In this document: positions 1-2,683 of the stretch, in pieces
How the letters are laid out: the number at the start of each line of letters is the position of its first letter
Numbering within the stretch: position 1 is the first letter of the stretch
Virus record (IMG/VR): IMGVR_UViG_2609459824_000012
DNA: 2,683 nt
Direction: 5' to 3' (one strand)
From: a virus
Taxonomy: Duplodnaviria > Heunggongvirae > Uroviricota > Caudoviricetes
Program-made: the position numbers and the translations under genes
Notes under the pieces: generated by a model
What the model was told of the DNA's origin: nothing
What the model saw: only the letters and a program-made list of their open reading frames with translations
Database searches by the model: none

Positions 1-317
1 TCTCTATTAATTCATAATGTTAAGGGGTGAACAGTTTCAAAAAAACTATTCACCAACTGTTCACCACTGTTCACCCTTGAAGCTCAATAAACAATCAAAA
101 AGGTGAACAGTGAATAGTTTGGTGAACAGTTCATAAATAACTGTTCACCCTATAATATACTGATATAAAAGATATTTATGACAGGGTGAACAGTGGTGAA
201 CAGTTATTCCATAAGTTTAATTTTTGCTATCGTCATTAGTGACCGATACACATGATGGCATCCAGTCTTCTGATTCCTCCGTCAGTGTCACGTTTGAACG
301 CAAACCGTGCTTCGTTT
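1..317. repeat. Direct repeat copy A: identical to 2367-2683 (period 2366 bp); holds the iteron array and the last 27 codons of the ClpP-like CDS
   Basis: Base-by-base comparison of 1-317 with 2367-2683 found no mismatch. The repeat runs to the window edge, so its true length is unknown. Confidence 0.95.
26..202. promoter_or_regulatory. Iteron array of P4 alpha-type octamers (TGTTCACC), candidate ori/crr-like replication element
   Basis: Perfect TGTTCACC on the plus strand at 58-65, 68-75 and 142-149; perfect GGTGAACA (octamer on the minus strand) at 26-33, 102-109, 121-128, 185-192 and 195-202; one-mismatch copies at 47-54 and 109-116. The core often extends to the 10-mer ACTGTTCACC. Two adjacent pairs (58/68 and 185/195) are spaced exactly 10 bp apart. 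AT-rich spacers at 76-101 and 150-183 could act as an unwinding region. TGTTCACC is the octamer I recall as bound by P4 alpha at ori and crr. Confidence 0.7.
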
Positions 318-1000
318 TTAAACACTTCACTTATTCCATTGATGCGCTTCTGTTCATTACCAGCAATATTTGCCGCTCCCTGTGGCGGTGTAATCATTCC
401 TTTAATGGTTTCCGGCATATGTAAAAAATCTCCTGTGCGTTTCGATTCAATTCGCGCCATTGCTCTGACGGATGGCAACAATTCATCAGCAAAACCGTGC
501 TTAAGGCATTCTTTCCCATCCATCCAGGTTTCATCCTCCAGCATGGCGGTAATTTCCTGTGCTGATTTGCCCGTTTTTCTGGCATAAGCAGGGATTAACA
601 CGGTTTCCACCTTATCCAGCAAATCAGCATAATCACGCATATCGCCAGCATTTCCGCCAGAGATACCCCACGGTTTATGGATCATCATCATGGCGTTCTC
701 CGGCATAACAACACGATCGCCAGCCATTGCGACAACCGAAGCCATTGAAGCCGCAACACCATCGATATAAACCGTAATGTCTGCCGGATGATTCCGTAGC
801 AGGTTATAGATGGCGATGCCTTCAAACACATCACCACCTGGTGAATGGATCCTCAGATTGATATGTGAAACATCGCCAAGGGCTTTCAGGTCTTCCGCGA
901 ACTGCTTTGCAGTAACACCGAAGCCGCCAATCTCCTCATAGATAGATATATCCGCCGCTCCGCGAACATCCGCCGCCTTAATGGTGTACCAGTGATTCAT
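236..1000 (-). CDS. ClpP-fold (peptidase S14-like) serine protease, 254 aa, with a ~80-aa C-terminal extension; prohead-protease-like
   Basis: The translation aligns by eye to the ClpP core: HSPGGDVFEGIAIYNLL matches the ClpP NSPGG...IYD segment, GVAASMAS matches the active-site GxAASMG serine motif, MMIHKPWG matches the MIHQP histidine motif, and GFADEL sits where the catalytic Asp is expected. ATG at 1000-998 is preceded by GGAGAG (plus 1007-1012) with a 6-nt spacer. The start overlaps the stop of the upstream 69-aa ORF (ATGA, 1000-997). Confidence 0.85.
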   Translation of the reverse strand: MNHWYTIKAADVRGAADISIYEEIGGFGVTAKQFAEDLKALGDVSHINLRIHSPGGDVFEGIAIYNLLRNHPADITVYIDGVAASMASVVAMAGDRVVMPENAMMMIHKPWGISGGNAGDMRDYADLLDKVETVLIPAYARKTGKSAQEITAMLEDETWMDGKECLKHGFADELLPSVRAMARIESKRTGDFLHMPETIKGMITPPQGAANIAGNEQKRINGISEVFKNEARFAFKRDTDGGIRRLDAIMCIGH

Positions 1001-1206
1001 TGCTCACTCTCCGATGCAAAACCACTCTGATTAAGCCAGGCGTTTACGGCATGCCTGACAATCTGCGCCACACCTGGTAATGGTTTGTCAGGATGATGAT
1101 TTATATGGTCGATCCTGTACTGCTTAAGGCGCATAACGGTCTGCGCATCCAGATGAACGGAACCACCCCTGATATCGCCCGTGTTCAGGTCATTAATACA
1201 ACTCAC
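997..1206 (-). CDS. Small hypothetical protein (69 aa), possibly a ribbon-helix-helix-like DNA-binding protein or protease partner
   Basis: ORF with a GTG start at 1206-1204 preceded by a strong SD (AAGAGGAAG, 5-nt spacer). Its stop overlaps the ClpP-like start (ATGA), implying translational coupling. The pattern SVHLD / AQTVMRLKQYRIDHIN / VAQIVRHAVNAWL is compatible with a beta-strand and two helices, but this is a weak call without a profile search. Confidence 0.55.
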   Translation of the reverse strand: MSCINDLNTGDIRGGSVHLDAQTVMRLKQYRIDHINHHPDKPLPGVAQIVRHAVNAWLNQSGFASESEQ

Positions 1207-1308
1207 AGTAACTTCCTCTTACTGACTAAACTGTGCACATTATTGATCGATAAAAGTGGTAGATAAACATATTTCTATCATAAAAATAGATTAATGAGAT
1301 TCAGACAC

Positions 1309-1331
1309 AAAAAAGCCGGATAAAATCCGGC
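1309..1331 (-). terminator. Rho-independent terminator (minus strand)
   Basis: On the minus strand: GCCGGA-TTTTA-TCCGGC hairpin (plus 1315-1331) followed by TTTTTT (complement of the A-run at 1309-1314). It lies about 100 nt upstream of the 69-aa ORF start. Confidence 0.65.
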
Positions 1332-1374
1332 ATAAATATCCCGCCATCTGAACACGTTTTGACACAGGCAACTC

Positions 1375-1387
1375 CACCTGGCAGGTG
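1375..1387. other. 13-bp palindrome CACCTG-G-CAGGTG, followed by iteron-like GGTGAAAAACAG
   Basis: Perfect inverted repeat seen directly, in the noncoding segment between the two minus-strand terminators. A related degenerate motif, GGTGAAAACAG, recurs at 1461-1471. Confidence 0.4.
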
Positions 1388-1582
1388 AAAAACAGATTTA
1401 TTTATATATTTCAATTAATTGCAAACTGGTCTAATGACAGGGAGAAAAAAATATTGTACAGGTGAAAACAGAAATAACTTTTAATTATCAATAAATTACT
1501 ACACATGCTGCCGCCGCCATGAAAATGCAAAAACCAGCCTTTTTCCGCGACGCTCCCGCCCCGTGGCAGGTCACTACACCGG

Positions 1583-1605
1583 GAGGACCCATAAAAAAGC
1601 CGGAT
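1583..1605 (-). terminator. Rho-independent terminator of the 81-aa/SSB operon (minus strand); possibly bidirectional
   Basis: On the minus strand: GCCGGA-GCAA-TCCGGC hairpin (plus 1589-1604, extendable by an A1588:T1605 pair) followed by a T-run (complement of A 1583-1588). It sits 25 nt downstream of the SSB stop (1631-1633). Its stem is the same as in the terminator at 1309-1331. Confidence 0.75.
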
Positions 1606-1630
1606 TGCTCCGGCTTCTGTTACTCGTTGC

Positions 1631-2053
1631 TTAAAACGGTATGTTATCCCCGTACGGATCATCATTTCCCGCCTGTTGTTTTGCTCTGCTCAGTGCATCA
1701 GTAGCCTGCCCCTGTTGGCCTTTTTTGCCGCCCGGTCGCGCCGTTCTCGCACTGATTACGCTGTCTGCGATACCCTGCCAGCCCTGCCGCGTCTCCCCGT
1801 TCTGTCCGGTCCACTGGCTCACCTGCATGTTACCCGCCACGCTCAGGAGTTCACCCTTGCGGTGCTTTGCCAGTGCTTCGGCCTGTCTGCCAAACGCCAG
1901 GACGGATAACCACATCGTCGCCGTTCCGTCATCTGCCTGGCTGCACGGAAGTGGGACCGCCATACTCGCCATCGTCATTTGTGTACCCTTGCTGGTGGTC
2001 TTTAACTGCGGGTCAGCCACCAGCCGCCCGTAAGCCGCTATCTGTGCTGTCAT
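1631..2053 (-). CDS. ssb: Single-stranded DNA-binding protein (SSB) homolog, 140 aa, compact with a short linker
   Basis: The translation shows OB-fold SSB hallmarks when compared with E. coli SSB: an N-terminal segment resembling VILVGNLGQDPE, a WLSVLAFGRQAEALAKHRKGE segment resembling [22 protein letters not shown], a WTGQNGETRQ segment resembling WTDQSGQDRY, and a C-terminal tip DDPYGDNIPF resembling the DDDIPF partner-binding tail. ATG at 2053-2051 is preceded by GGAGAG (plus 2062-2067, 8-nt spacer) and overlaps the upstream ORF stop (ATGA, 2053-2050). Confidence 0.85.
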   Translation of the reverse strand: MTAQIAAYGRLVADPQLKTTSKGTQMTMASMAVPLPCSQADDGTATMWLSVLAFGRQAEALAKHRKGELLSVAGNMQVSQWTGQNGETRQGWQGIADSVISARTARPGGKKGQQGQATDALSRAKQQAGNDDPYGDNIPF

Positions 2054-2295
2054 GCTGTCTGCTCTCCGGTTTTAACGTTGATGGTTGTCACCTGTTCCGC
2101 TTCGGCAATCTCCCGTTCTGTCAGCGTGGCAAAGTTTGCAGCTGCCGTTGTCATGAATGAGCTAATCAGTTCGGGATGTGCTTTCGCATATCCTTCCCCG
2201 GCGTTGCGGTCGATGATTTTTATCGACACCCTTAACCAGTGTTCCGTCAAATCAAGGGCGTGCGATTGTGATTTTTTTGTGTGCTTCGCTGTCAT
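2050..2295 (-). CDS. Hypothetical protein (81 aa), first gene of the SSB operon
   Basis: ORF with ATG at 2295-2293 and its stop overlapping the SSB start. The RBS is weak (GAGATAAAGCCT before the ATG). I recognise no family from the sequence. Support comes mainly from the operon layout, which mirrors the 69-aa/ClpP pair. Confidence 0.5.
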   Translation of the reverse strand: MTAKHTKKSQSHALDLTEHWLRVSIKIIDRNAGEGYAKAHPELISSFMTTAAANFATLTEREIAEAEQVTTINVKTGEQTA

Positions 2296-2340
2296 AGGCT
2301 TTATCTCACAGCAGTAAATTAAAATTTTTGCGTTTTAACC

Positions 2341-2568
2341 CTTCACCTGTTCACCTTTTGATATTTTCTCTATTAATTCATAATGTTAAGGGGTGAACAG
2401 TTTCAAAAAAACTATTCACCAACTGTTCACCACTGTTCACCCTTGAAGCTCAATAAACAATCAAAAAGGTGAACAGTGAATAGTTTGGTGAACAGTTCAT
2501 AAATAACTGTTCACCCTATAATATACTGATATAAAAGATATTTATGACAGGGTGAACAGTGGTGAACA
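2341..2568. promoter_or_regulatory. Upstream continuation of the iteron array (2341-2355) plus the copy-B iterons (2392-2568)
   Basis: CTTCACC at 2341-2347 and a perfect TGTTCACC at 2348-2355 lie just upstream of the repeat; the copy-B octamers are at 2392-2399, 2424-2431, 2434-2441, 2468-2475, 2487-2494, 2508-2515, 2551-2558 and 2561-2568. Read circularly, the array spans about 2341-2366 plus 1-205 and overlaps the likely promoter of the 81-aa/SSB operon. Confidence 0.65.
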
Positions 2569-2683
2569 GTTATTCCATAAGTTTAATTTTTGCTATCGTC
2601 ATTAGTGACCGATACACATGATGGCATCCAGTCTTCTGATTCCTCCGTCAGTGTCACGTTTGAACGCAAACCGTGCTTCGTTT
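2367..2683. repeat. Direct repeat copy B (second pass through the start of the 2366-bp unit)
   Basis: Identical to 1-317. Consistent with a circular 2366-bp molecule drawn past its junction or with a head-to-tail tandem array. Confidence 0.95.

Follow-up and report, generated by a model that had tools for sequence, protein, structure and literature searches.

The window analysed here, 2,683 nucleotides in length, is the whole of contig JNPR01000109.1 from the draft assembly of E. coli 2-005-03_S3_C3 (GCA_000703825.1; exact match of its 254-aa ORF), and consists of a 2366-bp unit behind which the first 317 bp recur without a change (1-317 = 2367-2683, 317/317 identical). Read along the minus strand, it begins with the 3' end of the gene for an initiator protein, Pri-Rep (last 33 codons and stop; 2583..2683, repeated at 217-317), where the CDS at 14265-16082 of the corresponding locus in E. 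coli strain B1-56 (L001) maps from 2583. The pri-rep stop codon at 2583 (= 217) is 15 bp from the outermost iteron of a dense repeat array, after which comes an 81-aa protein (2050..2295; phrog_1231), always located between origin and SSB, with its stop overlapping the start of a satellite-encoded SSB of 140 aa (1631..2053). Further along are a cos region (1358..1598) with a cosN (GGGCGGGAGCGT, minus strand 1561 to 1550) that phages cdtI and Tritos have as their left end, a terminator-like hairpin with a T-run downstream of SSB (1315..1331), a 69-aa ORF (997..1206; phrog_4934, function not assigned) and a chimeric 254-aa ORF (236..1000) composed of the 227 N-terminal residues of a 637-aa ClpP-like prohead protease/major capsid fusion and 27 out-of-frame pri-rep residues. 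An Rfam scan gave no match.

The octamer TGTTCACC occurs 17 times in the whole window against 0.11 copies expected, a count reached by none of 200 shuffles. Eight perfect copies lie within 26-202 in both orientations (26(-), 58(+), 68(+), 102(-), 121(-), 142(+), 185(-) and 195(-)), in line with the original prediction of at least eight there, and they include the two anticipated pairs at 10-bp phasing (58/68 and 185/195); a ninth is at 2348(+), and the remaining copies repeat the 26-202 sites within the 317-bp terminal repeat. Degenerate iterons were found at 47 (TATTCACC), 109 (TATTCACT, minus strand) and 2340 (CCTTCACC), and the spacers are 70-90% AT in 10-bp bins, both as predicted; the continuation of the array placed at 2341-2355 corresponds to the degenerate site at 2340 and the perfect one at 2348, which together span 2340-2355. 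The full conserved iteron word, (A)CTGTTCACC, is longer than the octamer, and the complete array (2340..2568, no strand assigned) comprises nine perfect and three degenerate copies of it in the layout ++ - +++ / --- + --, dyad-symmetric about ~2453.5, while 26..202 (no strand) is a second copy of most of the array due to the repeated contig end. The 12 iterons form 5-6 mirror pairs on a single centre at ~87.5 (= 2453.5), an arrangement matched by 30 of 5000 random placements. A central AT-rich spacer on the dyad axis (76..101 = 2442-2467, no strand; placed by AT profile and symmetry centre) is a candidate melting site, a role suggested by the legend of Fig. 2 in PMC6092414. Equivalent gap arrays are present in L001, in NZ_CP148328.1 (L002) and in ten related loci (L005-L014), and the count-based enrichment check that had been proposed gave 30.4 copies of TGTTCACC per kb in 11 such gaps against a background of 0.059 per kb over 289 kb of E. 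coli flanking sequence, so that the array is about 500-fold denser in the octamer than its surroundings.

Apart from a single mismatch (window 1773), the window corresponds to L001:14049-14366 joined to L001:12001-14365. Identity of its unit to E. coli chromosomes reaches 100%, and at least 80% of the unit is present in 136 complete genomes. In B1-56 the match lies within an island of about 10 kb encoding an integrase, an HTH regulator, a BRO-N protein, an Icd-like protein and DUF4222, then a 605-aa 'DNA primase family protein', the array, the 81-aa ORF, SSB and a cos-like stretch, and lastly the 69-aa ORF, the 637-aa ClpP-like protease/major-capsid fusion and DUF1441; the features at L001:9742-20025 are on one strand throughout, two small ORFs excepted. 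The primase-family gene lay under the match in 20/20 complete genomes among the matches listed (136 in all), and the array directly followed the 605-aa protein gene in those 20 listed matches and in 10/10 further loci (L005-L014, being those that carry an identical 81-aa protein). All ten of the latter showed the order DUF4222, 605-aa protein, 287-bp gap, 81-aa ORF and SSB, and irrespective of the capsid module that came next, the octamer clusters were confined to this gap. The absence of a cognate alpha/Rep gene, on which the original prediction was built, is accordingly a property of the 2683-bp draft contig only: in complete genomes an alpha-type gene is 15 bp away, and the initiator is missing from the window because the contig is cut and closed on itself.

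The modules downstream of this replication module were of at least three unrelated kinds in L005-L014 (a full cf-PICI set, the protease/capsid fusion with DUF1441, and a lambda E/D/Nu1-like set), which indicates modular exchange among E. coli satellites. The record L002 (NZ_CP148328.1, 10,790 bp, circular), deposited as a plasmid, is a near-identical copy of the island that is without window 1690-2274, where the 81-aa and SSB genes are located; this pair can therefore be regarded as dispensable accessory cargo, and the circular record implies that the island is recoverable as an episome, which lends indirect support to autonomous replication. An 80-bp piece of the cos region is repeated at L001:10665-10744 and L001:21820-21899, upstream of the DUF1441 gene of the island and of the prophage's own DUF1441 gene, respectively, so that the island probably has two cos sites, like cos1 and cos2 of the E. 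coli island EcCICFT073, which are functional.

Pri-Rep (605 aa) combines an SF3 helicase with a winged-helix origin-binding domain at its C-terminus, and Pfam recognises in it D5_N, an SF3 helicase core (DUF5906) and Pox_D5. Over residues 145-595 it shares 51% identity with residues 320-771 of P4 alpha, the stretch that covers the helicase and origin-binding domains, and its residues 497-593 hit the solved structure of the P4 origin-binding domain, 1KA8 (E=1.8e-24); the search for an alpha-like gene, suggested along with the original prediction, thus found one adjoining the array in complete genomes. Residues 1-144 (L001:15650-16082 (-)) showed no alignment to alpha 1-319 and no Pfam domain, their sole match being the uncharacterised phrog_2850. 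The domain order of P4 alpha is DnaG-type primase, SF3 helicase and winged helix (PMC2777425). Notwithstanding its annotation as a 'DNA primase family protein', Pri-Rep is without the 320-residue DnaG-type primase domain of alpha. The C-terminal tip of the host SSB recruits replisome partners, and the end of the satellite SSB (...DDPYGDNIPF) resembles that tip; such a tail could offset the missing primase domain of Pri-Rep.

P4 alpha reportedly binds TGTTCACC (Ziegelin et al. 1993), the octamer of the present array. Inspection of the P4 genome (NC_001609) bore out the earlier identification of this octamer as the P4 ori/crr repeat, since the 'ori type 1 repeat' annotated in both ori and crr is TGTTCACC, with the sequences verified; in full-text literature the string appeared in unrelated primers only and never together with phage P4. 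The similarity extends beyond the octamer, as the original prediction had required of a P4-type origin. The P4 ori core at 9310-9413 and window 102-202 are collinear at ~70% identity, with six sites in matching order and orientation and at similar spacing (P4: 9310-, 9320-, 9331-, 9353+, 9396- and 9406-, with gaps of 10, 11, 22, 43 and 10 bp; window: 102-, 109- (degenerate), 121-, 142+, 185- and 195-, with gaps of 7, 12, 21, 43 and 10 bp), while the alignment to crr is weaker. Window 8-78 in turn aligns to this P4 ori segment in reverse complement, and since both halves align to the P4 ori core, the array is in effect an inverted duplication of that core. The locus shares with P4 alpha-type origins the TGTTCACC clusters in both orientations, the identical octamer, and an initiator with an alpha-type SF3 helicase and C-terminal winged helix that are 51% identical to those of alpha. 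On the evidence of sequence, the SF3 helicase and origin-binding domain are a common inheritance of Pri-Rep and P4 alpha. P4, however, depends on two clusters, ori and crr, separated by ~4.5 kb, and also contains type 2 repeats, whereas the window element has one compact palindromic cluster; a bipartite ori with a distant crr was not found in L001, L002 or L005-L014, each having one cluster and a lone octamer within pri-rep. Likewise, the annotations and Pfam labels of the island and related loci include none of the P4 genes sid, psu, delta, epsilon and cnr.

The island organisation is instead that of a phage-inducible chromosomal island (PICI), an element of about 10-12 kb with cos or terS: the L001 island combines an integrase, an HTH regulator (Phage_AlpA in the related loci L005-L014), pri-rep, genes nearly all on one strand and a cosN. 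Origins of Gram-negative PICIs are described in PMC6092414 as lying immediately 3' of pri-rep with two iteron sets around an AT-rich region, and in L001 the mirror-image iteron sets flank AT-rich DNA 15 bp 3' of the pri-rep stop. The window element is thus a PICI and not a P4-like satellite, with an origin layout that is already published and in a satellite class that is widespread and described before; of the suggestion that the unit might be a fragment of a P4-like satellite, the fragment of a satellite was essentially right, while the P4-like part fell with the absence of sid, psu, delta and epsilon. The island itself has only the protease/capsid fusion and DUF1441 of the cf-PICI set (own capsid, protease, portal, connectors, HNH, TerS and TerL), although the same replication module is present in the full cf-PICI-type loci L005, L011 and L012. 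SaPI and other Gram-positive PICI origins are similar in that iteron sets flank AT-rich DNA directly 3' of the gene for the initiator (PMC6092414), but their sequences are unrelated and, by description, many SaPIs are set apart by separate Pri and Rep initiators.

The closest functional precedent is EcCICFT073 (L016), in which the pri-rep-ori segment drives plasmid replication with both parts required, as reported by Fillol-Salom et al. 2018 (PMC6092414). Between the Pri-Rep of EcCICFT073 and that of the window element, identity is 48% (34% in the origin-binding domain), and the EcCICFT073 gap of 288 bp contains 12 sites in the layout ++ - +++ / --- + --, five site pairs of which lie on exactly one centre. 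The two origins are alike in being a 287/288-bp gap 3' of pri-rep and before a small ORF and SSB, in the 12-site dyad and in the AT-rich spacers, and the islands are alike in organisation, cos sites included. They differ in the Pri-Rep allele and in the iteron word, which in EcCICFT073 is TGTCTACC, with TGTTCACC absent from the island, as well as in the capsid module, which is lambda E/D-like there as against the protease/capsid fusion and DUF1441 of the island to which the window belongs.

Among other species, 57 relatives had downstream DNA for comparison, and in these the dominant repeat just 3' of the pri-rep gene varies by lineage: TGTTCACC in Klebsiella, Citrobacter, Raoultella, Kluyvera, Pluralibacter and with P4-like alphas; TGTCTACC in E. 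ruysiae, K. georgiana and E. hormaechei; TGTCCRC in Serratia; TGTGCACC in Proteus; and TCTCTACC in Symbiopectobacterium. When the L001 protein was compared with its relatives L017-L029 (origin-binding domains 67-84% identical), the differences between word classes were concentrated at Pri-Rep 572-579, where a 5-residue indel separates users of TGTTCACC from close relatives using TGTCTACC or TGTCCRC. The loop reads KRKTKHG-LRSN in the TGTTCACC class, KCTKGPDKGRVITN in the TGTCTACC class and SKKKATRGRIQSN in the TGTCCRC class; that of P4 alpha, KRHTKQG-IQTN, has the short form of the TGTTCACC type, a further likeness between P4 and the window element. This co-variation of word and loop ties the array to the origin-binding domain. 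The relation is not one-to-one, the CFT073 domain being only 34% identical and yet sharing TGTCTACC with domains that are 67-70% identical (L020/L024/L025), which may reflect convergence or module exchange.

Taken together, these observations make it highly probable that the array is the origin of a Gram-negative PICI of E. coli, cis-linked in every intact copy to its own initiator, Pri-Rep, 15 bp away; Pri-Rep has its domains, and the origin its word, in common with the P4 system. For the allele in the window we infer binding, melting and double-hexamer loading, the function of the sister allele in EcCICFT073 being known from PMC6092414. The winged-helix domains of Pri-Rep would occupy the twelve mirror-image sites, whereupon two SF3 helicase rings would assemble head-to-head on the AT-rich centre at ~76-101 and melt AT-rich DNA, leading to bidirectional replication after induction by a helper phage; the SSB encoded downstream would coat the unwound strands, and priming might come from the uncharacterised N-terminus of Pri-Rep or from host DnaG.

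P4 and the PICIs are treated in PMC6092414 as only distantly related in the Pri-Rep protein. Three points go beyond that text, as far as it was available: a common PICI allele of Pri-Rep has its origin word, and half the layout of its origin, in common with P4; the twelve-site mirror design is kept across alleles with different words, a conservation that fits head-to-head loading of two SF3 rings; and the loop indel at 572-579 tracks the iteron word, which makes it a directly testable candidate for a specificity determinant. A rule linking loop and word would be useful for predicting cross-replication or incompatibility of co-resident satellites. For annotation, dense arrays of TGTTCACC in E. 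coli are markers of a PICI origin, and a neighbouring initiator should be sought before an orphan origin is invoked.

The closure of the 2366-bp unit is a separate matter from the identity of the array. It is created by a novel junction at 318..319 (no strand) that joins L001:14366, in the 3' end of pri-rep, to L001:12001, at codon 227 of the protease/capsid gene, and that is of the duplication or circle type rather than the deletion type, with no microhomology. A 30-mer across 318/319 had no match spanning the junction in viral, genome (185,579 species representatives) or metagenome contigs, nothing spanned it in 5,426 complete E. coli genomes searched with a 161-bp junction query, and the chimeric 254-aa ORF had an exact match on one contig of one draft assembly only. 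The initiator-less unit is accordingly one contig with a 2.4-kb slice of the island closed on itself and not a family of elements. The att site of helper-embedded PICIs (HE-PICIs) in a ClpP gene (C:CLP_protease:110) was considered as the source of the junction and rejected, since the break falls at codon 227 and is joined to the interior of pri-rep rather than to sequence beside an integrase. The closed unit, which contains the origin, SSB, cosN and a truncated protease, may represent a tandem duplication, a mini-circle or a misassembly, and tandem duplication or chimeric assembly accounts for the contig equally well as a mini-circle does.

That the closure is purely an artefact of assembly or library preparation, a chimeric join that leaves the array as simply the origin of the island in a mis-built contig, is a substantial possibility, although somewhat short of an even chance. 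The assembly is a draft of the 2014 era, the closure was seen once and its junction not found elsewhere among complete E. coli, species-representative, metagenome and viral sequences, and many genomes contain 2-8 related islands sharing the module, which could confuse an assembler. Misjoins in an assembly graph, however, normally occur at shared sequence, of which this junction shows none, and the contig ends 1 nt short of the point at which the junction would recur, as it would where the path truly branches into two real continuations; reads continuing into pri-rep presumably also exist in strain 2-005-03_S3_C3.

The original prediction of a hitchhiker fired in trans survives less well, resting as it does on this single junction, which was found in no other sequence searched. 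According to this reading the 2366-bp unit is a real circle without an initiator, its origin fired by the Pri-Rep of a resident island and its cosN allowing multimers to be packaged by the helper, much like a natural cosmid; we regard it as improbable. It draws on the self-closure of the contig through the 317/317 identical terminal repeat, on a junction of the circle or duplication type without microhomology and hence without collapse at a shared k-mer, on the retention of both cis sites (origin and cosN) together with SSB, on the occurrence of related full islands as circular plasmid records, and on the transfer by lambda and phi80 of plasmids with cloned PICI cos sites. Against it, the junction and the chimeric ORF are confined to one draft contig and were absent from the genomes, metagenome and viral contigs searched, a tandem duplication would give the same contig, and the breakpoints lie inside two genes with no recognisable site; moreover, PICI genes are described in PMC6092414 as silent before helper induction, so that the supply of Pri-Rep in trans would be transient. 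Because the unit retains both cis sites, a packageable mini-circle replicated in trans is conceivable, and its being shed by the island itself, with only origin and cosN as cis sites plus SSB, Pri-Rep supplied in trans and multimers packaged by the helper, has a slim chance of being correct. Such a molecule would be a parasite of a phage's parasite, comparable to a defective-interfering genome or a natural cosmid. Lambda-dv plasmids keep their initiator genes, and cosmids carry a cos site. The putative closed unit would resemble them as a spontaneous sub-genomic circle with an origin and a cos site but, unlike lambda-dv, would be without initiator genes.

It is very improbable that the array is a crr-like cis enhancer, a copy-number or handcuffing site, or an operator array (for Pri-Rep or another factor) serving the 81-aa and SSB genes, since, although it lies upstream of those genes and directly after the initiator gene, which is the position of crr in P4, the island has no second cluster but only the lone octamer inside pri-rep and hence no other candidate ori, the layout is closer to the P4 ori core than to crr (local alignment scores of 65-69 versus 39-53), the equivalent segment of EcCICFT073 is required for replication, and no promoter-like site was found in 1200-2683. 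An identification as a crr homologue was rejected for the weaker alignment to crr than to ori, notwithstanding the crr-like position. Nor did the proposed overlap of the array with the promoter of the 81-aa/SSB operon, by which iteron binding could double as transcriptional control, find support, as a promoter scan detected no sigma-70-like site in window 1200-2683 and no terminator separates the initiator gene from the 81-aa gene, from which it follows that the two genes are probably read through from upstream. Genes of Gram-negative PICIs are described in PMC6092414 as unidirectionally transcribed, and read-through would then suffice for this pair.

With the array read as the origin of a PICI, two further observations concern its setting. 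The B1-56 island is inserted in the large-terminase gene of a lambdoid prophage (flanks L001:8252-9373 and 20190-21182), and the same integrase/terminase junction was present in 33 complete E. coli genomes including B1-56. This island-in-prophage arrangement matches the HE-PICI class (PMC10111431); the likeness is one of integration site and not of the array, the same replication module being found elsewhere at ordinary chromosomal sites. Within the pri-rep coding region, ~1.3 kb from the array, there is a lone conserved TGTTCACC (L001:15536-15543 (-)), found at position 8435 in 8/10 of the related loci, which could be due to chance or could serve as a looping or autoregulatory site.
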